From an uncultured Planctomycetota bacterium (GTDB lineage: Bacteria > Planctomycetota > PLA2 > JAEUHO01), in contig CAVVXN010000005.1 in assembly GCA_963752285.1 (NCBI GenBank), positions 96,001 to 160,000 on the forward strand: a stretch of 64,000 nt of DNA, written 5' to 3'. Below are positions 24,733 to 41,233 of the stretch, in pieces; position 1 is the stretch's first letter, and each line of letters starts with the position of its first letter. The notes under the pieces are model-generated. The model had not been told where the DNA came from. It was given only the letters and a program-made list of their open reading frames with translations, and made no database searches. A program made the position numbers and the translations under genes.

Positions 24733-27072
24733 TCAGCGCCCACCCGTCGCCTCCTTCCCGAGCCACGGCTTCGTCGCGCGCTGCCGGGCCTGGACCGTCT
24801 GCTCGAAGGTCGTCCACGTGTCCGGGCGGGCCTCCGGCTTCGGGACCTCGTCCTCCGGGATGCCCAGTCGGGCGGCCAGGCGCGTCAGCCCGTCCTGGAA
24901 GCCCCGGACGACCGTCGGGTCGCGCCACCCCGCGACGGCGCGGTCCCAGAACGGGAAGACGTCCGGGAGGTCCATCTCGCCGAGGTCCGAGAGCACGCGC
25001 GCACGCCCGTCCGACGGGAGGCCGTCGTACCCGCGGACGACGTCGTCGAAGCGCGCCTTCCGCCGCGCCAGCTCGTGGATCCACCGGGCCGCGAGGTCGG
25101 GCGCGGGACCCTGTCCCCAGGTCCATCCGACCGAGCTGGGCGACACGCGTCGCACGAGCTCCCGGAACGGGTCCAGGCGCCCCGGCGCGAGGTACAGGCG
25201 GTAGACCTCGGCCTGCTCGCCCGAGAGGGTGCGTTCCTGCTTCGCGTACCACGCGGCCAGCCGGTCGGCGGTCGCCCCCGGGTCGGGCCCGCCGCCCGCC
25301 ACCGCCAGGAGCGCGTACTGGAGGAGCTCGGCGTCCTCGTCGAACGCGTCGAGGAGCGCCCACGCCTCCTTCGCGGCGGCCTCGGGGTCGGCGGCGCCGA
25401 GGAGCAGGAGCCCCGCCGTGCGCTCGCTGGAGCGGGAGGACGCGAGGAGGTCTCGGCCGAGGTCGGCGGCGCCGGGCGGCCGGGCGTCCAGGTACCGGAC
25501 CAGCTCGAGCGCGTCGTCGGGGAACCGGCGCGAGGCAACGATCTCACCGGCGCGCTCCGTGGCGCGTCGATGGAGCTCGGCCTCCCGATCGTAGGTCTCC
25601 TTCGTGGTGGCCCCGGTGGTGAGTCCCGCGCCCGAGCAGAACGCGAACCGGGCGGCCTTGCGGAGCTCCGCCGACGGGTCGTCGAGCAGCGCGAGGAGCG
25701 CGTCGGCGACGGGAGGGACCTTCGTGGCCCACGGCGCGAGCTTCGAGACGAGCTGGGCGCGGTACCGGGCGGTGAAGGCGCCGTCCCCGAGACGAGACGC
25801 GAGCCGGGCGACGAGGGCCGCGTCGAGCGGGACCTGCGACACGCCCTCGAGCGAGACGGTCTCGTCGGGACTCGCGGCCGCCTCGGACTCCGCGTCCCGG
25901 ATCGCCGCGAGGACCTCGGAGGAACGGAGGTGGGGCCCGACGGCGTCGAGGAAGCGGGCCACCGGGTCGCGCTCCTCCGGACGCGCGGCGAGGAGGCCCC
26001 GCGCGAACCGGGCCGCGCGCTCGGGGGTGAACAGCTCGCGGAAGCGATCCAGGGCGCCGTGCTCGAAGAGCCACAAGGACGTGGGCTCGTGGGCGAAGAC
26101 GTAGACGAATCGGTCCGGATCGCGGTCGGCGATCGCGAGGAGGATCCGGGAGGCCAGCTCGGACTCGATCGCGTAGGGGAGCGCCGCCTCGAGCTCGGGG
26201 AGCGACGTCTTCGGGTCGTCCGTCGCGCGGGTCACGGCGCGGACCCGCTCGTCGTCGTCCGCGCCCGAGACGAGCACCTCCGCGAGCGAGGGCGGGGACG
26301 CCGTCGGGACCGATCGGCCTGCCTCGTCGCCCGCGATCCGGGAGAGCGCCTTCTCGGCGGACGCACGAAGGGCCCCGTCGGGCGCCGCGGCCAGATAGGA
26401 GCGAAACGAGATCTCCGCGTGTCCCGGCTGCCCGAGCGCGAGGTACGCCTCGCCGGTCCAGTACGAGGTCTCGGGGAAGCGGACGGCGAGGTGCGCGGCC
26501 TGGAGCAGCTCGCCGATCGCCTCGGCGGCGCGGCCCGTCCGGAGGTGCGCCAGGCCGCGCAGGTAGTGGAGCGAGGCGGCCGCGGTCCGGTCCGCGGCGG
26601 GCCGCGTGGCGGGAGCGGGTCGGCCGAGGCGCTCCGCGACCGCCGCCGCGGCCGTTCGCGCCGCGCCTTCGAGGTCGCCGGTCGCGTCCACGGTGCCGAC
26701 GAGCGCTCCGTCCGGGACGGAGAGGACGCGGAGCACGTAGCGCCAGCGACCCTCCTCGAGCGCGACGGTGCCCGTCACCGCGCGGGTGGCGGCGAGGAGG
26801 TGGCCGATCCGCACCGCGTCGGTCGCGCCGGCCGCCGTGGCGAGCCCCTGTTCGGCGAGCGCGCGGTCCACGTCCGCGCGGTCCACGAGCGTGACGCCCT
26901 CGATCGTGCCGAGCGAGGCGGAGAGCACGTCCGTCGCGGCAGGGCCCAGGTCCGACGACGTGGATCCTCCGGCGGCCTCGAGCGGCCACACGAGCAGGGT
27001 CGCGGCGTCGTCCGCCGCCGCCGGTCGCGCGAGGCCCAGGATCGCGACGAGTAGGAGGAGCCGGCGCCTCAC
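24733..27072 (-). CDS. Secreted CsgG-like + TPR + HEAT-like repeat protein
   Basis: GTG at 27072 starts a complete signal peptide (RRRLLLLVAILGLARPAAA); LVDRADVDRALAEQGL (CsgG-like); HYLRGLAHL...YWTGEAYLALG (TPR). It is the 3' half of the 1791-aa track ORF. Confidence 0.65.
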   Translation of the reverse strand: MRRRLLLLVAILGLARPAAADDAATLLVWPLEAAGGSTSSDLGPAATDVLSASLGTIEGVTLVDRADVDRALAEQGLATAAGATDAVRIGHLLAATRAVTGTVALEEGRWRYVLRVLSVPDGALVGTVDATGDLEGAARTAAAAVAERLGRPAPATRPAADRTAAASLHYLRGLAHLRTGRAAEAIGELLQAAHLAVRFPETSYWTGEAYLALGQPGHAEISFRSYLAAAPDGALRASAEKALSRIAGDEAGRSVPTASPPSLAEVLVSGADDDERVRAVTRATDDPKTSLPELEAALPYAIESELASRILLAIADRDPDRFVYVFAHEPTSLWLFEHGALDRFRELFTPERAARFARGLLAARPEERDPVARFLDAVGPHLRSSEVLAAIRDAESEAAASPDETVSLEGVSQVPLDAALVARLASRLGDGAFTARYRAQLVSKLAPWATKVPPVADALLALLDDPSAELRKAARFAFCSGAGLTTGATTKETYDREAELHRRATERAGEIVASRRFPDDALELVRYLDARPPGAADLGRDLLASSRSSERTAGLLLLGAADPEAAAKEAWALLDAFDEDAELLQYALLAVAGGGPDPGATADRLAAWYAKQERTLSGEQAEVYRLYLAPGRLDPFRELVRRVSPSSVGWTWGQGPAPDLAARWIHELARRKARFDDVVRGYDGLPSDGRARVLSDLGEMDLPDVFPFWDRAVAGWRDPTVVRGFQDGLTRLAARLGIPEDEVPKPEARPDTWTTFEQTVQARQRATKPWLGKEATGGR

Positions 27073-29634
27073 CGCGGGATCTCCGTGGTGAGCACCCACG
27101 TGCCCGTGCCCCAGGAGGTCGTGACCAGCGTGCTGCACGGTGTCGTCGGGGCCGACCCACACGTCCTTCGGCATCGACTCGGCCTCCGTGAGGTGCGGAC
27201 CCGTCCACGCCGCGCCGTCCCGGGACGTGAACAGCCCGAACGCGCCGTCGGCCGTGCGATCCCAGAGGACCAGCGTTCCGTCGGGGGCACGGCCGAGGAC
27301 GGGACCCCAGAGGTAGCGAGAGAGGACGCCGGCCGTTCCCGTAACGGCGAGCTCCTGTGGCGCGCCGGCGCGGGGCCACCGCGTCACTCGGATCTCCCGG
27401 CCCATCGCGCGCGACGCGACGAGGACGGCTCCGTCCGGCAACGCGACGGCGGTGCCTCGCGCATCTTCGCCCACGAGCAGACGGGGTGCGCTCCAGGTCA
27501 TGCCGTCGGACGTGTCGATCTCGTAGATGCCGGCGCCGTCCGGCCCCTGGGCCGAGCGGAGGATCACCCGGCTCTCGCCGAGGTCACCCTCGAGGATCTG
27601 CACGTCCCCCTCGGCGAGGAACACCTGGGTCCCCGCCGCGGGTCCCAGGTAGGTGCGTTCCGCGTCGTGACCACGAATCGGGAACGCGATCCGCCGTGGC
27701 CACGACCATTCGACGAGATCGTCCGAGGTGGAGGCGTAGAGGCACGCCCACGTCGGGTTCCCCCGATTGGAGATCCAGACCAGGAGCCACCGTCCGTCGG
27801 CCATTCGCCCCAGGGCCGGGTGATCGTCGTACGCCGAGGACGACACCGAGAGCCGCCTCGGCGCGCCGAACGTCCGGCCGCCGTCGCTCGACGAGACGAG
27901 CCAGAGGTCGGGGTCCACCCACGGGTCGAGATGGGCCGGCGGGTCGTCCGGCTCGCCCCACCAGCTACCCCGTGCCGCCGCCAGCACGACGTGGACCGCG
28001 CCCTGCGGCCCCGTGGCGACGCGCAGGTGCTCGATCGGGCGGCCGAGCTCCGGCGCGAGCGGTGCCGCCCCGCCGATCGAGGGCGCGGGCCCGTCGCGCG
28101 CGTGGGCTCCCTCGGGGACGAGCTCGGCTCGCGTCTCGATCGAGTCGAGTCGGACACCCCGGGGCTCGGCCGAGACCCACACCTGGGCCACCGGAGGAGA
28201 GAACCGCATCGTCCGATCGACCGGCTCGGCGTCCCCGGCGGGAACGGTGATCTCCGTGACGACGTGCTGCGGACCGTTTACGCCGCCCCATCCGGACAAG
28301 AGGAGCGTCCCGGAGGATGCGTCGTCGTCTCGATGCGCCCCGACGTGCCAGTCGAGTCGCGAGATTCGCAGCCCGCGCGCGGCGAGGATCTGGAGCCCGG
28401 CGGGGAGGGAGGGGCCGCCCGGTTGGGGCGCCGGATCGACGGAAAGCGAACACCGCGGTGCGCTCGCGGACAGGACGACGCAGCCCGGAGGCACGGGTGT
28501 CGTCGGATCGACGGCGCGGACCGCGCGCGCGTACAGGGCGGCGTAGAGTCCGCCCAGGCCCGCGGCGACGCCGTGGAGCTCCTCCCAGGCATGGGTGGAC
28601 CAGAGGGCCTTCATGCGCTCGACGCTGGCGCTCCTCGCGAGGTCGGGCTGGAAGTGCACGTCGCGGGCCTGGCAGAGCTTCCATCGCGCGTAGACGAAGG
28701 CGAGGGCGTCGCTCCAGCGACCCTTCCGAGCGAGATCGAGCGCCAGGCGGCCGACGAGCGCGGAGGTCTCGGGGTGGTAGGGGAAGCGCTCGATGGCTCG
28801 CGCGAGGGTCTCCTCCGCGCCGTCAGCACGGCCGGGCTCTCCTTCGATCGCATCGGCGGCGAGCCGGGCCGCGCGCACGACCGCGTTCGGGTCGCGCGAG
28901 GTCCGGACGAGCTCCTCCCACGTGAGGGCGGCGTGCGCGTGCTGACCGAGATCCTGGTAGAGCCGCCCGAGCGCGAGCGCGGCGTCGGTGAAGGCCGGCT
29001 CCGCCTCCAGCGCGTGCGTCAGCCCGACGAACGCGCGGGGGTAGTCCGCGTCGTCCTCGGCGGCCAGTGCCCGGTAGTACGCGGCCATCGCCTCGACCGA
29101 GACCGGCGGCAGCAGGACGGCCGGCTCGAGCCCCTCGGCGCCGAAGACGGCCTGCGTCATGTCCGCGACGAGCCGGCCGAGCGTCGGGACCGTGCCGTGG
29201 AGCCGCCGGCTCCGAAGCGGCGTCCCCGCGTGCGCGTCCACGACCGCGAGGTCCACGTCCACGTCGTCGCCGTTCGCCGCGAAGGTGCCGAACACCGCCC
29301 AGTCGGCGTCGGCGACCCGCGCGAGGCTCGTCGCGTCCTCGGGTCGGAGGAGGCCCACGGCCGCGAGGTCGCGCTCTCGCAGCAGCTCGGCGACGCCCTC
29401 GCGCTCGACCACGACGACGCCGGGCTTCCCGGCGAGCGCGCCCGAGAGGAGCGTCCCGAGCGCCGAGCCGAGCCAGTCGTGCGCGGGGTCCTCGGCCCGG
29501 GGCGCGAAGCGGAGCACGGCGACCTGCAGGGTCTGGGGCCGGGCCGCGGGTTCGCCGTCGGCCCGGGCCCGCGCGGTCGAGACGAGGAGCGCGAGCACGA
29601 GACCGGCCCCGGCCCACAGCGCGCCCTTCGCCAT
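27069..29634 (-). CDS. Secreted CsgG-like + TPR + BNR/Asp-box (sialidase-like propeller) protein, with an apparent +1 indel near 27130
   Basis: Signal peptide MAKGALWAGAGLVLALLVSTARA; VVEREGVAELLRE (CsgG-like); TPR helices; Asp-boxes SSDGGRTF, TSDDLVEWS, TSDGMTWS and SRDGAAWT. The natural end appears to be TLVTTSWGTGTWVLTTEIPR* at 27069. Confidence 0.65.
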
Positions 29635-29981
29635 CGAGGAGTTGGACACCCTCCCGGGCCGATTCTTGGCCGGCCCCATTCTGGCGTCGCTCGTCCCGGG
29701 CCCATCGGAGCAGCCCGTTCGTCCGTGCGCAACGACGCTTCGGGGTGGGGGAGGTCGAACGCGAGGCCCCCGGATCCACGTGCCGGCCCGCGAGGGCGCG
29801 GGCCGCGTGAACGGACGAGCCGGGGCCGCAGGGAGCCGCATGGGCCGAGCCGCGGCGCGGAGACCTCCGGCGCTGGCAAGCGTGGCGACGGGGCGCGGCG
29901 CCGGCCGCGAACGGGGTTCGGCATGCCCTCCCGAGCCCGGATTCAGGGGCTCTGGGGGCCGACCGGCGGGGCCCCCGGGAC

Positions 29982-30003
29982 TGTCGGTGGTTCGTTTTAT
30001 GTT
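29982..30003 (+). promoter_or_regulatory. PafBC/RecA-NDp-type DNA-damage-inducible promoter motif
   Basis: TGTCGG-TGGTTCGTTT-TATGTT = TGTCGG-N10-TAnnnT, including the extended TGTCGGTG, 40 nt before the ATG at 30044. Confidence 0.65.
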
Positions 30004-30043
30004 AGGTGGATCGGACCGCGCTACCACCTTGGGGGATCTCCTC

Positions 30044-32521
30044 ATGCAAGCCGTCGAAGACGTCCGCCGCGCCCTCTCGTCGATCGACCTCGTCCAGGGC
30101 CTCTCCATCCACCACGTCGAGACCCACCTCGAGATGGGGCTCCGCCTCGGGGACGTGGGGCAACGCGTCCTCGCCTTCTACCTCCTGGAGATGGAGACGC
30201 GGGGGCTCCACCAGGCGCTCGGCTACGCCACGACCGCCTACTACGCCGAGGACCGGCTCGGTCTCGACCGCCGCCGAACGGCGGAGCTGCTGCGGGTCGG
30301 GCGACGGCTCCTGGAGCTCCCGGAGATCGACCAGGCCTTCTGCGAGGACCGGCTCCCGTGGTCCAAGGTGCTCCTCCTCTCGCGGGTCGTCGAGCCCGCG
30401 CACGAGGCGGCCTGGCTCGCGCGCGCGCTCGCGCTCACGAAACGGGACCTGGAGCAGGAGGTCCGCGTCGTCAGGCCCGGCGCGCCGCCGCCCGCGTCCG
30501 GGGAGCGGATGGGACTTCCGCAGGTCCGCTTCACGGTCGAGATGAAGGTCTCGCCGCTCGTCCAGGCGAAGCTCGAGCAGGCGAAGGCGCGGGTCGAGTC
30601 GGAGCGCGAGACCCCGATCGGCGACGCGGAGCTCCTGGACGTCGTCCTCGACACGTTCCTCTCCTTCGAGGACGACGGGACGATCCCCGGGAAGAAGCGC
30701 GTCGCGCGTTCGCTCTACCAGATCGTGCTCCGCGAGGAGGCGTGGCCCGACGAAGGCACGCCGGGGGGAGTACCTGGAGAGCAGGGCCGAGACGAAAGTG
30801 ACGAAAGCGACGGAGGCGGCGGCGCGGCGCCGGACGACCGGACCCGCGAGTCGCTGGGGGACGCGAGGCCGCCGGGGGACGCGAGGCCGCCGGGCGACGC
30901 GAGGCTGCCGGGCGACGCGAGGCTGCCGGGCGACGCGAGGCTGCCGCCGATGCCGCGACTCCTCCTCGAGAGCGGCATCCCGCTCGCCGAGGCGTGGAGC
31001 GCGGCGGTGCGCTGCGACGCCGAGGTCTCGGGCTGCCGGCAGGACGTGCCCCACGAAGAACGCGACCCGAAGACGCCGCGCTGGATGCGGAGGCGGGCGC
31101 TCGCGCTCGACGGCCACCGGTGTCGATCGTGCGGCTCGCGCTACCGGCTGATGGTCCACCACGTCGCCTTCCGGCGCCGAGGCGGGAAGACGAGGCTCCA
31201 GAATGTCGTGACCCTCTGCGTTCGCTGTCACGCGCTGGTCCACGAGGGGCTCCTCGAGGTCGAGGGACGAAGCGGAGGGGAGGTCCGGCTCGCGGGGATC
31301 GACGGGCGGTCGATCCGGACGCCCCTCGCGCCCGCCGACCGGAGGGCGGTGATCGGGATCCCGTCCACCCGCAACGGGTCGGAGTCCGACGGACGGGCGC
31401 GCGCCTCGCCCGCGCCTTCGCTCCCGCCGCGCGTGGCCCTCGCGGACGTGCCCCTGGAGATCGACGCCGCGTGGTGGCACCGGCACCGGGACCTCGTCCG
31501 GTTCCGGAGCGAGACGGAGGTCGAGCTCGAACCGGGACGGCCCAAGGCCGAAGCGACGAACGAGGCGCGTGGCGAGGCGGGCCCGCCATCGCAAGCGGGC
31601 GTGTCCTTCGAGGAGGCGTTCGAGGGTCTCGTCGGGCAGGAGGACCTGCTCCGGCGGATCGAGGTGGCCTTCGAGGGATCCAAGGCGCGGGGCCGCGCGG
31701 TCCCGCACCTCCTCCTGGTCGGTCCCCCGGGGACCGGCAAGACCACGATCGCCCGGCGTCTCTCCACGCTCGAAGGCGCGCGGCTCGTGGAGGCGAATGG
31801 CGCGTTCCTGGACGCGCCGGGTTCGCTCGTGCGGATCCTCGCGGGACTCCGGGACGGCGACGTCCTCTTCGTGGACGAGGTCCACGCGCTCGCGCCGGCG
31901 GCGCAGGAGGTCCTCTACCCGGCGATGGCCGAGGGGCGGCTCGGGCTCGTGTTCGGACGGGGATCCGAGACCCGGACGGTCTCGTTTTGGCTCCCGCGCT
32001 TCACGCTCGTCGCCGCGACGACGGAGGAAGCGAAGGTGTCGGGTCCGCTTCGCTCGCGGTTCGGGCTCGTGGAGACGCTCGGGTTCTACGAGGAGGCCGC
32101 GCTGGTGCGGCTGGTGGACGAGCACGCGCGAAGGGAGGGCGTAGACCTCCCGGTGGAGTCGGCCGAGGCGCTCGTCCGCGTGGCCCGCGGGACGCCCCGG
32201 GAGGCGCTCCGGCTCCTCGAGCGGACGCTCGACCTCGCGGCGGCGGAGGGCGTGCCCCGGGTCTCACCGGAGATCGTAAAGGAGGCGCTCCGGATGCTCG
32301 GGTTCGACGCGGACGGCCTGAACCCTGCCGAGCGGCGCTACCTCGCGCTGCTCCGGGGGCGTCGCGGACCCGTGCCCCTCGCGCGGCTCGCGCGGATGCT
32401 CGGGACGAGCGCCGTGGCGGTGGCGCGGCAGATCGAGCCGTACCTGTGTCTTCGAGGCTTCGTCCAGGTGACGGCGATGGGTCGGCTGGCGTCGTACCGG
32501 CCGCGGATCGCGCAAGCCTGA
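30044..32521 (+). CDS. DUF222-like - HNH endonuclease - RuvB-like AAA+ ATPase fusion protein (825 aa)
   Basis: N-terminus LGYATTAYYAEDRLGL...LLELPEIDQAFCEDRLPWSKV (DUF222-like). HNH at about 31085..31250: CRSC...VHHV...GG...NVVTLCVRCHALVH. RuvB from about 31600: VGQE, HLLLVGPPGTGKTT, LFVDEVH, EVLYPAM, FTLVAATT, PLRSRFG, RGTPR, IEPYL...GR. Confidence 0.9.
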   Translation: MQAVEDVRRALSSIDLVQGLSIHHVETHLEMGLRLGDVGQRVLAFYLLEMETRGLHQALGYATTAYYAEDRLGLDRRRTAELLRVGRRLLELPEIDQAFCEDRLPWSKVLLLSRVVEPAHEAAWLARALALTKRDLEQEVRVVRPGAPPPASGERMGLPQVRFTVEMKVSPLVQAKLEQAKARVESERETPIGDAELLDVVLDTFLSFEDDGTIPGKKRVARSLYQIVLREEAWPDEGTPGGVPGEQGRDESDESDGGGGAAPDDRTRESLGDARPPGDARPPGDARLPGDARLPGDARLPPMPRLLLESGIPLAEAWSAAVRCDAEVSGCRQDVPHEERDPKTPRWMRRRALALDGHRCRSCGSRYRLMVHHVAFRRRGGKTRLQNVVTLCVRCHALVHEGLLEVEGRSGGEVRLAGIDGRSIRTPLAPADRRAVIGIPSTRNGSESDGRARASPAPSLPPRVALADVPLEIDAAWWHRHRDLVRFRSETEVELEPGRPKAEATNEARGEAGPPSQAGVSFEEAFEGLVGQEDLLRRIEVAFEGSKARGRAVPHLLLVGPPGTGKTTIARRLSTLEGARLVEANGAFLDAPGSLVRILAGLRDGDVLFVDEVHALAPAAQEVLYPAMAEGRLGLVFGRGSETRTVSFWLPRFTLVAATTEEAKVSGPLRSRFGLVETLGFYEEAALVRLVDEHARREGVDLPVESAEALVRVARGTPREALRLLERTLDLAAAEGVPRVSPEIVKEALRMLGFDADGLNPAERRYLALLRGRRGPVPLARLARMLGTSAVAVARQIEPYLCLRGFVQVTAMGRLASYRPRIAQA
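30857..30946 (+). repeat. In-frame 18-bp tandem repeat x5 (GDARPP x2, GDARLP x3)
   Basis: GG(G/C)GACGCGAGGC(C/T)GCCG repeated five times. Confidence 0.95.
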
Positions 32522-32750
32522 CGGAGGGAGGGAGGAGGAGCGCCCGCACGAACACGAGCAGGGAGCGGGAAGAGCGGGCCCCCGCACGGTAGAGGGCGGC
32601 CGACCAGGTCGCGCGAGCGAGGGCGGGGGATCCCGGCCTCGGGCGCGCGGGCGTCGGGCGTCGCTCGGCGCGAGCTTGGTGGCCGAGCTCGGTGGCTCGG
32701 CGTGCGTCGGGCGGCTCTTTGTAAAGACGCGCGCGCGCCGAACGTTCGGC

Positions 32751-32771
32751 AAACCCGACCGGCGGGTCGGG
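32751..32771 (-). terminator. Candidate intrinsic terminator of the hem operon
   Basis: Minus strand CCCGACC-cgcc-GGTCGGG-TTT, starting 13 nt after the hemN stop. The U-tract is short. Confidence 0.4.
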
Positions 32772-32783
32772 ATTGGGGCCGGT

Positions 32784-34235
32784 TCAGACCGTGCGGCTGT
32801 AGCGGGGGCGGGTCGGGCCTTCCTCGTCGCGGCGGGCTCGTTCGGCGCGGAGGTGCGCGTCGAAGACCATGCACACGTTTCGGACGAAGAGGCGGCCGAG
32901 CGGCGTGAGGCGGATGCCCTCGGCGTCCACCTGGACGATGCCGTCGTCGGCCATCGCCCGGAGCTCCTCGGCCTCCTCCGGGTAGCGCTCGCGCCAGTCA
33001 CCCCCGCCCGCGGGGATGTCGGGAAGGAGGTGCGTGCGGCCGACGCGACCGTTGCACATGAGCTCCTGGATGATCCGGCCCCGGAGCTCGTCGTCCGGCG
33101 TACGTCGGTAGCCGCGGTGTACGGGGAGCTCACCCGCCTGGATCGCGTGCTCCCACTGGGTGAGCTTCGCGTGGTTCTGCACGTACACGCCCCGCGCATC
33201 GCCGATGCCCGTGATCCCGAGCGCGACCATGTCGGTGCCCGCGCGCGTGTGGAAGCCCATGAAGTTCCGGTGGAGCGTCCCCTCCGCGCGCGCACGCGTG
33301 AGCTCGTCGTCGGGGCGGGCGAAGTGGTCCATGCCGATGAACTCGTAGCCCGCGCCGACGAACGTCTTGACGCCCGCCTGGAACAGCGCGAGGCGTTCGC
33401 GCGCCTTCGGGAGCGCCGCCTCGTCGATCTTGCGCTGGTGGGCCTTGAGCCACGGCACGTGCGCGTAGCCGAAGAGGCTCACGCGGTCGGGCCGGATGCG
33501 TTCGACCACCACGTCGAGCGTCTTCTGGAAGTCCTCGGGCGTCTGGTGGGGGAGTCCGTACATGAGGTCCACGTTGACGCTCGTGAAGCCCTCCTCGCGG
33601 CAGAACTCCACCAGCGCGAGGGTCTGCTCGACCGACTGCACGCGGTTGACGGCCTCCTGGACCTTCGGCGTGAAGTCCTGAACGCCCATGCTCACACGCC
33701 ACCAGCCGAGGCGACGGAGGGTCGAGACGTGCTCCCGCGTGGTCACGCAGGGATCGACCTCGAGCGCGATCTCCGCGTCACCGAGGATCTCGAAGCGATC
33801 GGCGATCTTCGCGTGGATCTGCTCGAGCGCCTCGGCGGGAAAGTACGTCGGCGTCCCGCCGCCCAGGTGGAGCTGCGCGAGGCGGCGGTTGCCCGCCGAG
33901 AGCGCGTCGGCGACCAGGTCGATCTCGGGCAGGAGCGCGGCGAGGTACCGGTCCACGATCGCGCGGTCGCGGCTCACGATCACGTTGCACCCGCAGTAGG
34001 TGCACATCGCCTCGCAGAAGGGGAGGTGGAGGTACAGGCTCAGCGGCGGCGCGTCGGGACCGCGCGACCGGTAGACCTCGAGCGCCTCGGCGGGGCCGAT
34101 CTCGGGTCCGAAGTGCGGCGCGGGCGGGTACGAGGTGTAGCGCGGACCCGGGCGGTCGTAGCGCGGCGTGAGCTCGACGGCACGCGCGAGGTCCGCGGCG
34201 TCGGGCGGACGATCGGGGACGCCGGGCTCGGTCAT
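32784..34235 (-). CDS. hemN: Oxygen-independent coproporphyrinogen III oxidase (radical SAM)
   Basis: GPRYTSYP, LYLHLPFCEAMCTYCGC, HLGGGTPT, IGMDHFA, LHRNFMG. Confidence 0.95.
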   Translation of the reverse strand: MTEPGVPDRPPDAADLARAVELTPRYDRPGPRYTSYPPAPHFGPEIGPAEALEVYRSRGPDAPPLSLYLHLPFCEAMCTYCGCNVIVSRDRAIVDRYLAALLPEIDLVADALSAGNRRLAQLHLGGGTPTYFPAEALEQIHAKIADRFEILGDAEIALEVDPCVTTREHVSTLRRLGWWRVSMGVQDFTPKVQEAVNRVQSVEQTLALVEFCREEGFTSVNVDLMYGLPHQTPEDFQKTLDVVVERIRPDRVSLFGYAHVPWLKAHQRKIDEAALPKARERLALFQAGVKTFVGAGYEFIGMDHFARPDDELTRARAEGTLHRNFMGFHTRAGTDMVALGITGIGDARGVYVQNHAKLTQWEHAIQAGELPVHRGYRRTPDDELRGRIIQELMCNGRVGRTHLLPDIPAGGGDWRERYPEEAEELRAMADDGIVQVDAEGIRLTPLGRLFVRNVCMVFDAHLRAERARRDEEGPTRPRYSRTV

Positions 34236-35278
34236 CGCGCCTCCGAGGGAGCCGGCACGGGTCGGAAGCGGTGGACCGCCTCCACGAATGCGCGCGCGTT
34301 GTCCGGGGGCGTGTCCTTGAGGATCCCGTGGCCCAGGTTCGCGAGGTGGGGGCGGCCGGGGGGCACGGACGCGCACATCTTCGTCGTCGCCTCATGGACC
34401 GTGCGCTCGTTCGTGAGGAGCACGGTCGGGTCGAGGTTCCCCTGCAGCCGCACGCGGCCTTCGACGCGGGCGTACGCGGCCCCGAGGTCGGTCCGCCAGT
34501 CGAGCGAGAGCGCCTCGACGCCCGTGAGGAGCGCGTCCTCGAGGCGCGCGGCCGTGCCGAGACCGGGGAAGAGGATCACCGGCGGTCGGTGCGGCCCCAG
34601 GCCTTCGACGACGCGACGCACGGACGGCACCACGATCTCGCGGAAGAGGTCCGGCGAGAGGACGCCGGCCCAGGTGTCGAAGAGCTGCAGGACCTGCGCG
34701 CCACAGGCCGCCTGCTCCCGGAGGTAGGGCACCAGCGCGTCGGCCGCGCGGTCCACCAGCTCCCGAAACGCGCGCGGATGCGCGTGGAGGAAGCGCCGCG
34801 TGGTCTCGAAGTCCCGGCTCGTCCCGCCCTCGACCATGTACGCACAGAGGGTGAAGGGCGCGGCCGAGAAGCCGATCAGCGCGACGCGGTCGGGGAGCGC
34901 GCGGCGCAGGATCGACACGGTCTCGAAGACCGCCCGCACCCGCGACGGGTCGGGCGCGTGGACGCGCTGGACGTCGGCCGGCGAGCGGATGGGATGGACG
35001 ATCCGCGGGCCGCCGTCGGGGAACTCGACCGTGACGCCCATGGCGTCGGCCGTGAGCAGGATGTCGGCGAAGACGATCGCCGCGTCCACGTCGAACCGCT
35101 CGACGGGCTCGAGCGTCACCTCGGCGGCCAGCTCCGGCGTGCGGCAGAGGTCCAGGAACGAGGTCTTGGCGCGGACGCGCTGGTAGCCGGGGAGGTAGCG
35201 TCCCGCCTGGCGCATCATCCAGACGGGGAAGCGATCGACCGGCTCGCCCTGGAGCGCGCGGAGGAAGAGCGGGGTCAC
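34232..35278 (-). CDS. hemE: Uroporphyrinogen decarboxylase
   Basis: PVWMMRQAGRYLP, DAAIVFADIL, LIGFSAAPFTL, QLFDTWAG, QGNLDP, NLGHGI. The GTG overlaps the hemA stop. Confidence 0.95.
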   Translation of the reverse strand: MTPLFLRALQGEPVDRFPVWMMRQAGRYLPGYQRVRAKTSFLDLCRTPELAAEVTLEPVERFDVDAAIVFADILLTADAMGVTVEFPDGGPRIVHPIRSPADVQRVHAPDPSRVRAVFETVSILRRALPDRVALIGFSAAPFTLCAYMVEGGTSRDFETTRRFLHAHPRAFRELVDRAADALVPYLREQAACGAQVLQLFDTWAGVLSPDLFREIVVPSVRRVVEGLGPHRPPVILFPGLGTAARLEDALLTGVEALSLDWRTDLGAAYARVEGRVRLQGNLDPTVLLTNERTVHEATTKMCASVPPGRPHLANLGHGILKDTPPDNARAFVEAVHRFRPVPAPSEAR

Positions 35279-36543
35279 GGCGCGGGCTCCTCGGGCTCGC
35301 CGAGACCGAAGAGCGAGCGGAGGTGCTCGGCCGTCGGCATCGAGGGGTCTTCCTTCTCCATGCCCTTCACCACACGCGCGGTGGGTCGGGCGAGGAGCTT
35401 CTGGACGAGGCGCTTCGTCAGCTTCTCGACCGCCGCGCGGACCTCGCCGTTCACGTGCTCCGGGAGGTACGAGAGCTCGCTCTGTCGCACCTGCTCGGCC
35501 CAGGCCGTGATGGTCTGGATCGTCGGCATCGCCGCGAGCGTGCGGTACCACGCGCGGAACTCGCCGTACTCCTGGGCGAGGATCGTCTCGACCTCGGGCA
35601 CGGCCTCGCGGCGCTGCGAGAGCGAGCTCGCGACGATCTCCTCGAGCGCGTCGAGGTGGTAGAGGAACACGCCGGGCAGGTCGCCGATCGACGGTTCGGC
35701 GATGCGCGGTACACAGAGGTCCACGATGAGGAGCGGGTCGCGACGCTTCGTGAGGGCGGTCTCGACCGCGGTGCGGTCGAGCGGCCGCGCGCCGCCGGCC
35801 AGCACGACGACGTGCGTGCGCGCGATCTCGGACGGCACGTCCTCGAGCCCGAGGACCCCCGCCCGAGGGAGCATCCCCGCCAGCTCCTCGGCGTGCGACC
35901 GGGTGCGGTTCGCGACCATGTAGCGTCCGTCGCCGGAGGCCGCGAGCGCCAGCGCCGTCTGCCGCGCCATCTGTCCCGCGCCCACGACGAGCACGTCGCG
36001 GCCGGCCACGCTGCCGAACACACGCTGCGCCACGCGTGCCGCGGCGCTGCCGTGCGAGACGCCCCCGGACGAGATCCGCGTCTCGCTCCGCGCGCGCTTG
36101 CCGGCGCGGAGCGCGCTTCGGGCGAGCCGGTCGAGCACCTTGCCGGCCGTGCTCGCCTTGAGCGCCGCCTCGTGCGCGGCGCTCACCTGGCCCTGGATCT
36201 CGGTCTCGCCGAGGATCGCCGACTCGAGGCCCGCGGCGACGCGGAAGAGGTGGCGCGCCGCGGTCTCGCCCTCGCGCACGCGGAGCACGGTGGTGTCGAG
36301 GCCCTTCGCGCCCGGGAGCACGTCGCCGAGCGCCTCCACGACGAGGTCCGAACCGTCCGCGCGCGCCGTCACGACGTAGAGCTCCGTGCGGTTGCACGTC
36401 GCGACGAGCATCGCCTCGTCGGCCCACGACCGGGCGCAGACCTGACGCAGGAGGTCGGAGATGCCGCCCGGCGGGACCGCGAGCCCGTCGCGCACCTCGA
36501 TGGGCGCGACGTGGTGGTCGATGCCGACGAGGAAGAGGTCCAC
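35275..36543 (-). CDS. hemA: Glutamyl-tRNA reductase
   Basis: ATCNRTELY, HLFRVAAGLESAILGETEIQGQV, VGAGQM, ANRT, DLCVPR. Confidence 0.95.
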   Translation of the reverse strand: MDLFLVGIDHHVAPIEVRDGLAVPPGGISDLLRQVCARSWADEAMLVATCNRTELYVVTARADGSDLVVEALGDVLPGAKGLDTTVLRVREGETAARHLFRVAAGLESAILGETEIQGQVSAAHEAALKASTAGKVLDRLARSALRAGKRARSETRISSGGVSHGSAAARVAQRVFGSVAGRDVLVVGAGQMARQTALALAASGDGRYMVANRTRSHAEELAGMLPRAGVLGLEDVPSEIARTHVVVLAGGARPLDRTAVETALTKRRDPLLIVDLCVPRIAEPSIGDLPGVFLYHLDALEEIVASSLSQRREAVPEVETILAQEYGEFRAWYRTLAAMPTIQTITAWAEQVRQSELSYLPEHVNGEVRAAVEKLTKRLVQKLLARPTARVVKGMEKEDPSMPTAEHLRSLFGLGEPEEPAP

Positions 36544-36546
36544 GGC

Positions 36547-37344
36547 CTACCCCCAGGCCACCAGCGGGTGGACGAGGAGCAGCGCGACGAGCACGACCAC
36601 GAGGCCCATGAGGTTGAGCCATGCCGCCATGCGCCCGCGGAGCGGGCGCCGCCACCAGATCCACGACGCGGCGAGGAGGAGGAGGAAGCACGCGGCCGTG
36701 AGGCCCACGAGCACGGTCGTCCCGGGAGGCGCCTCCTCGTTTCGGGCCACGACCACGCCCAGCACCAGGGCCGGCCCCAGCAGGAACACGCCCAGGAACG
36801 AGGCGCGCCGGTCGAGTCGTTCGAAGCCGCGGAGGGAGGGCCCTTCGGCACCGTCTTGTCCGAGCACGCCGCGCTTCACCCTCCGGTACTGGCCGAGGTA
36901 GCCGCCCGCGAGGAGCCCGCCCGCGAGGACGGCGGCGGTGCCCATCAGCGAGAGCCCGACGTGGAACGTGCGGATCGTGTCGTGGGCCATGTCCGCCGCG
37001 CGTCCCGCGTGGATCAGGCCCGGAGCGCCGAGGGCCGCGAGCAGCGTCGCCGCCGCGTAGAAGCCCCCGCCGTGCGTCGCGACGCGGCTCGTCGCCTCGA
37101 GCACCAGGTAGAGCGCGCCGAGCGAGAACGCGAGGAACGAGAGCGACTGGCTCGGTGTGGCGAACGGGCTCCGGCCGATGATCCGCGAGAGCAGGATCAG
37201 GCCCAGGAGGTGCGCTCCGACCGCCAGCGGGCCGAGGAGTCGGGCCCACACGGGCGGCGGCTCGCGGCGGCGGCGGGCCTCCAGGTACGCGGTGGCGACG
37301 GCGGAGTACAGCGCCACCACCAGGACCAGGATCGGGGTGCCCAT
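36547..37344 (-). CDS. CcsA/HemX-family cytochrome c assembly membrane protein
   Basis: About 8 TM segments; PFAT, FHVGLSLMG and PSLRGFERL motifs; typical position directly upstream of hemA. Confidence 0.75.
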   Translation of the reverse strand: MGTPILVLVVALYSAVATAYLEARRRREPPPVWARLLGPLAVGAHLLGLILLSRIIGRSPFATPSQSLSFLAFSLGALYLVLEATSRVATHGGGFYAAATLLAALGAPGLIHAGRAADMAHDTIRTFHVGLSLMGTAAVLAGGLLAGGYLGQYRRVKRGVLGQDGAEGPSLRGFERLDRRASFLGVFLLGPALVLGVVVARNEEAPPGTTVLVGLTAACFLLLLAASWIWWRRPLRGRMAAWLNLMGLVVVLVALLLVHPLVAWG

Positions 37345-37437
37345 TCCGGCCCATGTTCGCGGACGATCCGGGGAGGGGGAAGGGAAGCCCGTGCGTCACG
37401 CGGGGTCCCTTCACGAGGGGCGAGAGCGTGAGCCGGA

Positions 37438-38859: not shown

Positions 38860-40176
38860 TCAGTACCGATAGGCGTCCGGCTTGTAGGGACCGTCCTGCG
38901 GGACGCCGAGGTACGCGGCCTGCGCGTCGGAGAGTCGCGTCAGATGCACGCCGAGCTTCTCGAGGTGCAGGCGGGCGACCTCCTCGTCGAGGCTCTTCGG
39001 GAGCACGTGGACGCCGAGGGGGAGCGGCGGCTTCGACGTCCAGAGGAGGATCTGCGCGAGGACCTGGTTCGTGAACGAGGCCGACATCACGAACGAGGGG
39101 TGACCCGTCGCGCAACCGAGGTTCACGAGACGACCCCGCGCGAGGAGGATCAGGTACCGCCCGTCGGCCCGGCGGAAGCGGTCCACCTGGGGCTTCACGC
39201 TCTCCTCGGTGATGCCGCCGGTGGTCTCGAGCCAGTGGACGTCGATCTCGTGGTCGAAGTGGCCGATGTTGCAGAGGATCACGTTGTCCTTCATCGCGAG
39301 CATGTGCTCGCTCCGGACCACGTCCTTGCAGCCGGTGGCGGTGACGAAGATGTCGCCGACGGGGGCGGCCTCCTCCATCGTCACGACCTCGTACCCCTCC
39401 ATGGCCGCCTGGAGCGCGCAGATCGGGTCGATCTCGGTGACGAGCACGCGCGCGCCGAGGCCGCGCATCGACTGGCAGCAGCCCTTGCCGACGTCGCCGT
39501 ACCCGGCGACGACGACGACCTTCCCGGCCACCATCACGCCCGTCGCGCGCTTCAGTCCGTCGGCGAGCGACTCTCGGCAACCGTACAGGTTGTCGAACTT
39601 CGACTTCGTGACCGAGTCGTTCACGTTCACGGCGGGGATCCGGAGCGTGCCTCTCTCGTGGGCCTGGTAGAGGCGGTGGACGCCCGTCGTCGTCTCCTCG
39701 GAGAGGCCCTGGACGCCGGGGACCAGCTCGGGGTGCCGGTCGTGGACGATCCAGGTGAGGTCGCCGCCGTCGTCGAGGAGCAGGTTCGGACCGCGGCCGT
39801 CGGGCCACTGGAGCGTCTGCTCGATGCACCACTCGTACTCCTCGAGGGTCTCGCCCTTCCAGGCGAAGACGGGGACGCCGGCCTTCGCGACCGCGGCCGC
39901 CGCGTGGTCCTCCGTCGAGTAGATGTTGCAGGACGACCACCGAACCTCGGCCCCGAGGTGCACGAGCGTCTCGATCAGGATCGCCGTCTCGACGGTCATG
40001 TGGAGGCATCCGGCGATCCGCGCGCCGGCCAGGGGCTTCGTCTTCCCGTACCGCTCGCGGAGCGCCATCAGCCCGGGCATCTCGGGCTCGGAGATGGCGA
40101 TCTCCATGCGTCCGGCCCCGGCCAGGGCGATGTCCTTCACCTTGTAGTCGGTGGGGGTCGTGGTCATCGGCGTCAT
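38860..40176 (-). CDS. ahcY: Adenosylhomocysteinase
   Basis: [80 protein letters not shown] before the ATG at 40176. Confidence 0.97.
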
Positions 40177-40294
40177 CGATCGTCCTCGGGTTCGAAGGCG
40201 CCGCGGTACGCGGCGCGCGACCTGCCTGCAACCCTCGGCGAGGCCGCTCGGCGGGGGCGAGCCGGGCCACGCACCCTGGTATGGTACGCGGCCC

Positions 40295-41233
40295 ATGGGG
40301 CCCGATCGCTTCGCCGTCGCCGAGCTCCGGGAGTCCCTCGGCCGCCCTCTGCCCGAGCTCCCCTGCAAGTACCTCTACGACGATCGGGGGAGCGAGCTCT
40401 TCGACGAGATCACGACGCTCGAGGAGTACTACCCCACCCGCGTCGAGACCTCGATCCTCGAGGGATCGGGCGACGCCATCATCGAGGCCGTCCGCCCCCG
40501 CGAGCTGGTCGAACTCGGCTCGGGCGCGGGCCGGAAGATCCAGATCCTCCTCGACGCGATGGCCCGCCGCGGGCTCTTGGAACGGGTCCTCCTCCTCGAG
40601 ATCAACGAGCGGTTCCTCGCGACCTCGGTGCAGTCGCTCGAGGCCGGTCACCCGGGGCTCCGGGTCGTCGGGATCCCCGGCGACTTCGAGCGCGACCTCA
40701 TCCGGCTCGGCCTCGGCGGAGACCGGCTGATCCTGCTCCTCGCGAGCACGATCGGGAACCTCGCGCCCGACGAGGCGGGGCGGTTCGTCGGGCGCGTCGC
40801 GCGTCAGATGGCCGCGCGGGACGCCTTCCTCGTCGGATTCGACCTGATCAAGGACAAGGCCGTCCTCGAACGCGCCTACAACGACGGGCGTGGCGTGACC
40901 GCCGCGTTCAACCGGAACATCCTCCGCGTGGTGAACGCGCGCTTCGGCGGCGACTTCGACGTGGACGCCTTCGAGCACGTCGCGTTCTACGACGAGGCGA
41001 ACGCGTGGATCGAGATGCGGCTTCGCGCCACGAAGCCGACGCGCGCGCGCGTCGATGCCGTCGGCGTGTCGCTCGCCTTCGACGCCGGCGACGAGATCCG
41101 GACCGAGATCTCGTGCAAGTACGACCGCGCGCGGGCCGAGGCCGTCGCCAGGGTCGGCGGGCTCGTCCTCGATCGCTGGGACACCGACCCGGAGGGTCGG
41201 TTCGCCCTCGGGCTCCTGCGTCGCGCCTCGTGA
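40295..41233 (+). CDS. egtD: L-histidine N-alpha-methyltransferase (EgtD family)
   Basis: [58 protein letters not shown]. Confidence 0.9.

Follow-up and report, generated by a model that had tools for sequence, protein, structure and literature searches.

One gene in a 64-kb stretch of DNA from an uncultured Planctomycetota bacterium (contig CAVVXN010000005.1, positions 96,001 to 160,000; this whole stretch is referred to as the window) joins an HNH nuclease and a RuvB-type motor in a single polypeptide, and sequence comparison indicates that this fusion is real, conserved and under selection. The gene (30044..32521, + strand; 825 codons plus stop) encodes an N-domain, a linker, the HNH domain, a WW segment and the RuvB-like motor, as supported by its open frame, its G+C content at third codon positions (GC3) and its full-length homologues. 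Across the family, alignments give a fixed domain order of ParB-like N-domain, flexible linker, Zn-HNH, WW segment and divergent RuvB-paralogue AAA+ module. With moderate confidence, we propose that this protein works independently of RuvA, as a self-contained, ATP-driven translocase-nuclease of duplex DNA with an accessory role (keeping foreign or selfish DNA in check, or a specialised task in DNA processing), and not as a core Holliday-junction motor.

Results

The gene and its coding frame

The open reading frame (ORF) has no internal stop in its 825-residue translation and ends with a stop codon at 32519-32521. On the + strand the frame is already open far upstream of the ATG at 30044, which is the start column of most homologues in the family alignment (A1); an alternative in-frame ATG lies at 29999. 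GC3 is 0.82-0.98 in all 180-nt intervals along the gene, both low-complexity linkers included, and ~0.7-0.78 in the flanks. Because GC3 is high across the linkers and lower in both flanks, a single unbroken coding frame is well supported, in agreement with a preliminary description of this DNA that had reported an uninterrupted ORF with G/C-ending codons over both linkers.

Pfam searches with the 825-residue protein gave matches to HNH (PF01844, residues 360-400, 34.7 bits against a cut-off of 21.4), RuvB_N (PF05496, residues 525-678, 140.5 bits), AAA_lid_4 (PF17864, residues 682-755, 39.3 bits) and RuvB_C (PF05491, residues 758-817, 37.5 bits). Every motif named in the preliminary description was located. 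For the HNH domain these are CxxC at 360/363, HH at 372/373, N387, CxxCH at 392-396 and H400; for the motor they are Walker A at 560-567, DEVH at 611-614, ATT at 658-660, R672, GTPR at 716-719, a 20-residue hairpin and TAMGR at 810-814.

A family of nuclease-motor proteins

When 5.8 billion clusters were searched with a length restriction, 59 strong matches over the full length were obtained (E-values of 2e-189 to 2e-73, 32-51% identity, 535-1042 aa); precomputed Pfam assignments give both HNH and RuvB_N for 55 of these. The few named matches are called "AAA family ATPase" or "RuvB" and belong to Planctomycetota, Planctomycetia and Desulfuromonadales bins, with Planctomycetota in the majority. 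With residues 1-520 as the query, HMMER searches of 1.84 billion representatives gave 10,232 matches at E<=1e-3, 1,626 at E<=1e-10 and 197 at E<=1e-30. The ESM Atlas assigns the protein (score 0.99) to a cluster of 123 "hypothetical proteins"; for 42 of them the phylum is known, most often Planctomycetota.

We then sorted 205 collected proteins into architecture classes with hidden Markov models cut from alignment A1. The complete arrangement of N-domain, HNH, WW segment and RuvB is found in 90 proteins, and the same arrangement lacking the WW segment in 26. Forty-nine proteins have only the N-domain and HNH, 13 have N-domain, HNH and WW segment, and two have N-domain and RuvB. The remainder are N-domain only (14, mostly fragments) or RuvB-type only (11, RarA-like weak matches). 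The preliminary description had allowed that no other genome might carry the fusion; instead, N-domain, HNH and RuvB occur together in 116 of the 205 proteins, from at least 116 clusters.

Four members look like fragments or frameshifted copies: P0330 (on an 866-kb contig), P0128 (51-kb contig), P0224 (690-kb contig) and P0058. In proteins of this kind the sequence that follows the N-domain turns Arg/Ala/Pro-rich and seems out of frame, or the protein begins within the WW segment; the latter is so in P0224, which has the appearance of a frameshift or of a start called wrongly. The four could be pseudogenes, or their high-GC assemblies could contain frame errors.

These data also bear on a more mundane explanation, in which the protein is the organism's own RuvB orthologue with an N-terminal extension, or an artefactual fusion of adjacent genes produced by assembly or sequencing error. 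Its RuvB part is readily recognisable (E 1.8e-77 to NF000868), and high-GC assemblies do yield frame errors, as some relatives suggest. However, the same architecture with alignable junctions recurs in those 116 of 205 proteins, which come from many sources, the coding signal is continuous over both linkers, and the motor lies below both RuvB equivalog cut-offs and outside the canonical clade (see below). We consider this explanation largely refuted already and highly improbable.

The RuvB-like motor

The motor module aligns end to end with residues 28-323 of E. coli RuvB and shares 35.5-42.1% identity with RuvBs from 80 genomes drawn from many phyla. Its large ATPase domain (residues 525-678; 31616..32077, + strand) holds Walker A (560-567), Walker B (611-612), sensor-1 T659 and the Arg finger R672, together with a presensor-1 beta-hairpin of 20 residues (632-651; 31937..31996, + strand), the dock for RuvA domain III in canonical RuvB. 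The AAA+ lid, or small ATPase domain (residues 682-755; 32087..32308, + strand), carries sensor-2 R719, and in the RuvB_C winged-helix head (residues 758-817; 32315..32494, + strand) VTAMGR stands in place of RTPRGR. The scores against both NCBIfam equivalogs fall short of their cut-offs, at 260.5 bits against 282 for NF000868 and 245.5 against 299.05 for TIGR00635. The three RuvB domains and the motor residues listed in the preliminary description are all present, but its wording of a complete RuvB overstated the case, given these scores.

Conservation within the family is uneven. The Walker A Lys, Walker B Glu, sensor-1 Thr, Arg finger and sensor-2 Arg are each kept in 99/99 family modules, and ~45 positions that are at least 90% conserved in canonical RuvB are relaxed. 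Excerpts of PMC9477746 assign roles to several RuvB residues: a trans-acting acidic pair (E128/D129 in S. thermophilus), DNA-contact arginines in the head, and the presensor-1 hairpin as the docking site for RuvA domain III. The first position of the acidic pair is E in 80/80 canonical proteins; in the family it is A in 40, E in 24 and D in 12, and here it is A629. The second is D in 80/80 canonical proteins and in the family E in 42 or D in 31 (E630 here). The three head arginines are found in 78/80, 75/80 and 80/80 canonical proteins and in 6/99, 47/99 and 93/99 family modules, the residues of this protein being V809, M812 and R814, respectively. Deletion of the presensor-1 hairpin is seen in 0/80 canonical proteins and 13/99 family modules; here the hairpin is present at canonical length, with its D, G, P and A positions not conserved. 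As judged by these alignments, the motor clade keeps the ATPase engine and is relaxed in the RuvA-docking hairpin and in most of the DNA-contact arginines of the head.

The RuvB phylogeny called for in the preliminary description gave the same answer in three trees. A FastTree analysis of 99 fusion modules and 80 canonical RuvBs places the fusion modules in one clade (SH-like support 98). When the 118 closest short database proteins were added, 17 fell inside the fusion clade and 101 with the canonical RuvBs (181 canonical in all), and the split had a support of 99; the 17 are fragments, because most come from 1-3 kb contigs. In an IQ-TREE analysis (LG+C20) of a random 35+35 subsample, the split received a Shimodaira-Hasegawa-like approximate likelihood ratio support of 100. 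Mean clade depth is 1.81 substitutions per site for the fusion clade and 0.98 for the canonical clade, an approximately twofold difference. A pattern scan of genome contigs with the Walker B peptide recovered canonical ruvB loci (best 80 of 597); the two that were inspected, L004 and L035, are both ordinary ruvB. Taken together, the trees identify the motor as a separate, fast-evolving clade of RuvB paralogues and not a captured bona fide ruvB. From its conserved residues, we infer a selected and very probably active ATPase, whose partner and DNA surfaces are unlike those of RuvB.

HNH domain, N-domain and linker

The Zn-binding HNH nuclease domain, with a conserved beta extension, spans residues 340-412 (31061..31279, + strand). 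In alignment A1, C360, C363, H372, H373, C392, C395, H396 and H400 are invariant in 29/29 sequences and N387 is nearly so (at least 90%). The zinc and catalytic residues are retained in 166-179 of 179 relatives, the misses being mostly truncated sequences. Foldseek matches for this domain include McrA, TagI, Cas5-HNH and Gme HNH, with the HNH of ZRANB3 at rank 24 (probability 0.90). With the catalytic His/Asn/His of a beta-beta-alpha-metal nuclease and the CxxC...CxxC zinc site in place, the Pfam cut-off passed and HNH folds among its matches, the HNH domain is intact and Zn-binding in type, as had been described from the sequence alone.

The N-domain (residues 1-231; 30044..30736, + strand) is predicted to be all-helical with a ParB/Noc-like fold. 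Its AlphaFold2 model has 12 helices and a mean predicted local distance difference test score (pLDDT) of 88.3. In a Foldseek search of the PDB, the top ten matches to this model were all ParB/Spo0J/Noc DNA-binding domains (probability 0.95-1.00, E 0.05-0.17), with template modelling (TM) scores of 0.36-0.65 by target and 0.31-0.38 by query. Against the BFVD viral library the best matches were uncharacterised phage proteins, followed lower down by proteins annotated as DUF3102 and Spo0J/ParB. Sequence searches of the PDB and Pfam with the N-domain gave nothing meaningful, and because of this the likeness to ParB is one of fold only.

The preliminary description had called the N-terminus DUF222-like, a view the profile searches do not bear out: PF02720 has no match on the whole protein (E<=0.1) or on the N-domain alone (E<=10). 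In a scan of 36 relatives, two exceed the DUF222 cut-off of 24.4 bits, P0055 with 30.0 and P0172 with 26.8 bits, in matches that span profile positions 24-117; three others are sub-threshold. The N-domain model thus has the look of a ParB-type DNA-binding domain, and its kinship with DUF222 appears only distant.

Between the N-domain and the HNH domain lies a variable, acidic, Pro/Gly-rich linker (residues 232-339; 30737..31060, + strand) that is unalignable across the family and gives a weak match to DUF1388 repeats. It holds five in-frame copies of an 18-nt tandem repeat (30853-30946; repeat family D1) encoding GDAR(P/L)P. The linkers of other members have different short repeats in the same place, such as GGHLT (four copies) in P0055 and GGDAS/GGNAS-like units in P0048. 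Because relatives carry differing repeats there, this linker seems prone to repeat expansion.

The WW segment

A block of ~40 residues is conserved between the HNH domain and the motor (residues 460-502, VPLEIDAAWWHRHRDLVRF...LEPGRP; 31421..31549, + strand). The family consensus in A1 is VPxxVDxxWWxRHAHL...GLxFxxGxP, no Pfam family corresponds to it, and in the predicted model it forms a helix and a small beta-hairpin with pLDDT values of 87-92.

Presence of this segment tracks presence of the presensor-1 hairpin. Across the 99 fusion modules, 81 have both, 13 have neither, five have the hairpin only (two of them with a degenerate WW segment) and none has the WW segment only. A Fisher test of the association gives 1.4e-12 with relatedness ignored, and a tree built without the hairpin columns requires ~10 hairpin changes and ~11 WW changes. 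As read from these alignments, the link between WW segment and hairpin is suggestive and not established.

The origin of the segment is informed by the relatives that have no motor. In a tree of the N-domain and HNH, RuvB-less relatives form their own supported clades of 12 rows (support 97) and 4 rows (support 95). Many of them (among others P0094, P0100, P0104, P0114, P0127, P0131, P0133 and P0180) end naturally 20-40 residues past a WW-like motif. Because RuvB-less relatives end just after it, the WW segment belongs to the ancestral nuclease protein and not to the motor. One further proposal, which we put forward as doubtful, builds on this: the WW segment would mimic RuvA domain III and hold a RuvB-type ring by its presensor-1 hairpin. 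Proteins with N-domain, HNH and WW segment but no RuvB would, on this view, call in a RuvB hexamer in trans, which might be that of the cell itself, and the fusion would hard-wire this partnership into one chain, a site-directed, DNA-pumping nuclease with no need of RuvA or RuvC.

The locus

The window has a G+C content of 74%, and the base composition and codon bias of the gene match those of its neighbours. As had been described, the gene stands alone between spacers of ~410 and ~260 bp. The upstream spacer is a divergent intergenic region (29635..30043), the divergent neighbour likely starting at ~29634. It contains GGGGGA ~9 nt before the ATG at 30044, a possible ribosome-binding site by sequence, and an AT-richer stretch, GTTCGTTTTATGTTA, at 29990-30004. 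A sigma-70 scan found 0 sites, and no Rfam family was matched in the intergenic region or in the window. The damage-type promoter that had been suggested did not hold up: its sole nameable candidate, GTTC-N7-GTTA within that AT-richer stretch, is of a pattern that occurs at chance level. GTTCN7GTTC with one mismatch is found 37 times in the window against 36.9 expected, the motif being that of alphaproteobacterial LexA and perhaps not that of this host. Downstream, a 262-bp spacer (32522..32783) separates the gene from a convergent hemN-like gene and has a weak terminator-like hairpin at 32695-32712. Two terminator-like sites were found against 0.8 expected; the second hairpin and T-run, at 31966-31984, is inside the gene, within the presensor-1 hairpin codons, and is probably due to chance.

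The divergent neighbour (24733-29634, - strand; ~1,633 codons) has a weak CsgG-like stretch, a BNR/sialidase-like repeat region and, by eye, a signal-peptide-like start. Its ORF is open to 30177, but the coding signal fades near 29600. On the other side lies a tetrapyrrole cluster (32784-37395, - strand) of a hemN-like radical SAM protein, URO-D (hemE, 412.6 bits), glutamyl-tRNA reductase (hemA) and a cytochrome c assembly protein. Further neighbours encode a polyprenyl synthetase, an S-adenosylhomocysteine (AdoHcy) hydrolase, an EgtD-type methyltransferase, NAD kinase, MacB-type and resistance-nodulation-division efflux proteins, an extracytoplasmic function sigma factor and PurF. The EgtD-type histidine methyltransferase (Methyltransf_33, 306.6 bits; 40148-41233) partly overlaps the stop-to-stop frame of the AdoHcy hydrolase (38860-40374), and the two genes are a possible ergothioneine-related pairing.

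Absence of ruvA and ruvC from the window, also noted in the preliminary description, was confirmed: the 27 ORFs scanned around the gene include no such Pfam match, and the RuvC and RuvA of locus L004, used as tblastn queries, reached E-values of 7.3 and 0.047 at best, respectively. With the proteins of the same locus, the sole RuvB-like stretch in the 64 kb is the fusion gene itself.

A selfish origin had also been raised, in which a DUF222-type homing or repeat-associated nuclease took up a RuvB paralogue that drives branch migration at the element's own break for self-copying. Elsewhere in the family there are features in keeping with this idea. The N-domain+HNH(+WW) core occurs without RuvB and is distantly DUF222-like, frameshift-looking copies exist, and REP13E12/HNH/DUF222 genes are among the repeated elements in mycobacteria in the excerpts of PMC10589994. 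At this locus, however, it is unsupported. No convincing terminal inverted or direct repeats flank the gene, only weak GC-rich matches of 70-83% that are typical of 74% G+C DNA; no part of the protein is found a second time in the 64 kb; and the locus has no intron or intein context. No phage, transposon, integrase, mobile or defence genes were found among the 27 ORFs, the neighbours being housekeeping genes. Thus terminal repeats, extra copies, foreign composition and mobile neighbours, by which a mobile or homing element would be recognised, are all missing within the window. The motor clade, moreover, is old and monophyletic, unlike a recent capture. We regard a selfish element as improbable.

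Two aspects of the annotation reflect the base composition of this DNA. Between 28000 and 34500, both strands have many long overlapping ORFs (up to 1,238 codons) in non-coding frames, and because such spurious ORFs are typical of 74% G+C DNA, ORF length alone is no evidence of a gene in the window. ARAGORN reported a 93-nt tRNA-Ala(cgc) at 1899-1991 and a 91-nt tRNA-Asp(atc) at 16423-16513; both are inside long high-GC3 ORFs with no Rfam tRNA, and both are probably false positives.

Discussion

In the translocase-nuclease model that we favour, the RuvB-like modules would assemble, like RuvB, into a hexameric ring on double-stranded DNA, and the N-domains would direct this ring to a site or structure in the DNA. 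The HNH domains, being tethered, could then nick or cut the DNA as it is pumped. The WW segment may dock on the presensor-1 hairpin in cis and take over the regulatory role of RuvA domain III. All five elements of this model, from ring formation and translocation to targeting, cleavage and the contact between WW segment and hairpin, are predictions.

We assign an accessory role because members of the family are rare (E<=1e-30 is reached by 197 of 1.84 billion clusters) and fast-evolving, with repeated segment loss, and because the family has RuvB-less and frameshift-looking members and kinship with a nuclease family that excerpts of PMC10589994 associate with repeats.

Several observations weigh against this model. 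The 27 scanned neighbouring ORFs include no defence, phage or mobile genes, and native composition and a housekeeping neighbourhood fit a resident function such as repair equally well. By tblastn, no family member is found on 72,556 plasmids or 50,697 phages; the 13 and 8 records matched all cover the HNH core only (8-17% of the query), and PHROGs yielded generic clamp-loader and HNH families only. Nor is there a meaningful match in PADLOC-DB 2.0, where the best ones cover only the P-loop (mad8, residues 554-621) or the HNH core (DpdF, residues 353-403). None of these searches points to a role in defence, such as that of the translocating anti-phage nuclease that had been suggested. ATPase activity is not assured, because Ala is the first residue of the acidic pair (A629, E630) that RuvB needs for hydrolysis, and with two of the three head arginines lost, the module may no longer hold DNA in the manner of RuvB. 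The similarity of the N-domain to ParB is at the level of the fold (E 0.05-0.17, TM ~0.37 by query), with no sequence signal. A phylogenetically independent test of the WW-hairpin association was underpowered, with five supported pairs of which ~3 change in the same direction and 0 in the opposite (sign test p 0.25), and the co-loss could be mere general shortening in compact variants.

The strongest competing explanation is that the protein is a core repair or recombination enzyme, in which one polypeptide replaces RuvA (through the N-domain), RuvB (the motor) and RuvC (the HNH domain) at Holliday junctions or stalled forks, with ZRANB3 as an analogue. A native composition, a place among housekeeping genes and a lone transcription unit would all suit such an enzyme. 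So would the presence and conservation of all three junction-processing activities, the ZRANB3 HNH among the fold matches, and a three-domain RuvB layout that aligns end to end with E. coli RuvB. However, a rare and patchy family that evolves about twice as fast as canonical RuvB is atypical of a core repair gene, as are repeated segment loss and RuvB-less or frameshift-looking members. The N-domain resembles a duplex site-binding ParB domain and not the tetramer fold of RuvA, and the argument from an SOS-type promoter is at chance level. We therefore hold a core repair role to be possible but unlikely, and prefer an accessory translocase-nuclease.

Comparison with known systems

RuvB is the textbook ring motor that relies on a loader (RuvA) and a separate nuclease (RuvC). 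Compared with the RuvB of the RuvAB(C) resolvasome (TIGR00635/NF000868; structures 9dx3 and 7pbl), the motor described here has the same RuvB_N, AAA_lid_4 and RuvB_C layout, identical Walker A/B, sensor-1, Arg finger and sensor-2 residues, and a presensor-1 hairpin. It differs in being fused behind a DNA-binding domain and a nuclease. The acidic E-D pair, the RTPRGR arginines, GGPVG and ~40 other canonical positions are not kept in the fusion family. Whereas locus L004 has ruvC-ruvA-ruvB, the fusion gene has no ruvA or ruvC in its 64 kb.

DUF222 (PF02720)-HNH proteins, such as the products of mycobacterial REP13E12-associated genes, likewise have a helical N-domain followed by a CxxC...HH...N...CxxCH HNH. 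The RuvB-less relatives of the fusion family are 350-550 aa long, and two relatives pass the DUF222 cut-off. In contrast, the protein studied here has no DUF222 match and carries a RuvB-like motor, and its family comes mainly from Planctomycetota-type metagenome bins, while DUF222 genes are mostly actinobacterial. To our knowledge, the role of DUF222-type HNH proteins has been unclear for decades. ParB/Spo0J/Noc proteins provide the best fold matches of the N-domain model, both in the PDB top ten and among Spo0J/ParB-annotated BFVD phage proteins, but sequence similarity is missing, the TM scores are modest (0.31-0.38 by query) and no match to the ParB N-terminal CTP-binding domain is seen.

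ZRANB3, a eukaryotic enzyme, has an SNF2 translocase and, at its C-terminus, an HNH nuclease; McrBC combines an AAA+ translocase with a nuclease. The logic shared with both is an NTP-driven double-stranded DNA motor coupled to a nuclease, here predicted from sequence, and the HNH of ZRANB3 and McrA-type HNH domains are among the fold matches of this HNH. The motor families are unrelated (SNF2 in ZRANB3, the McrB GTPase in McrBC), and the McrBC nuclease is a separate PD-(D/E)xK subunit.

We found no description of the HNH-RuvB fusion in the full-text literature, in line with the preliminary description; subscription journals and supplements lie outside this scope, and an earlier mention in a comparative-genomics table is possible. 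In the excerpts consulted, PMC7824862 describes phage RuvC as not coupled to a RuvB-like ATPase, and PMC3592412 notes that some HNH enzymes have an AAA NTPase domain or DUF222. The fusion family is probably a motor-coupled nuclease built on a RuvB paralogue, whose members have so far been labelled "RuvB" or "AAA family ATPase" by annotation pipelines, and the WW segment and its co-loss with the hairpin are newly recognised here. A conserved RuvB paralogue that shares one chain with a DNA-binding domain and a nuclease, and in which the docking hairpin can be lost, would show how such a motor is re-targeted and would offer a first functional handle on DUF222-type HNH proteins. The co-loss of WW segment and hairpin makes a specific interaction directly testable. 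If the WW segment does mimic RuvA domain III, RuvB motors would be harnessed here in a way not recognised before, and the large DUF222-type HNH family would gain a mechanism. Should the enzyme translocate and cut at defined sites, it may form a new single-gene class among the translocating nucleases of defence or repair.

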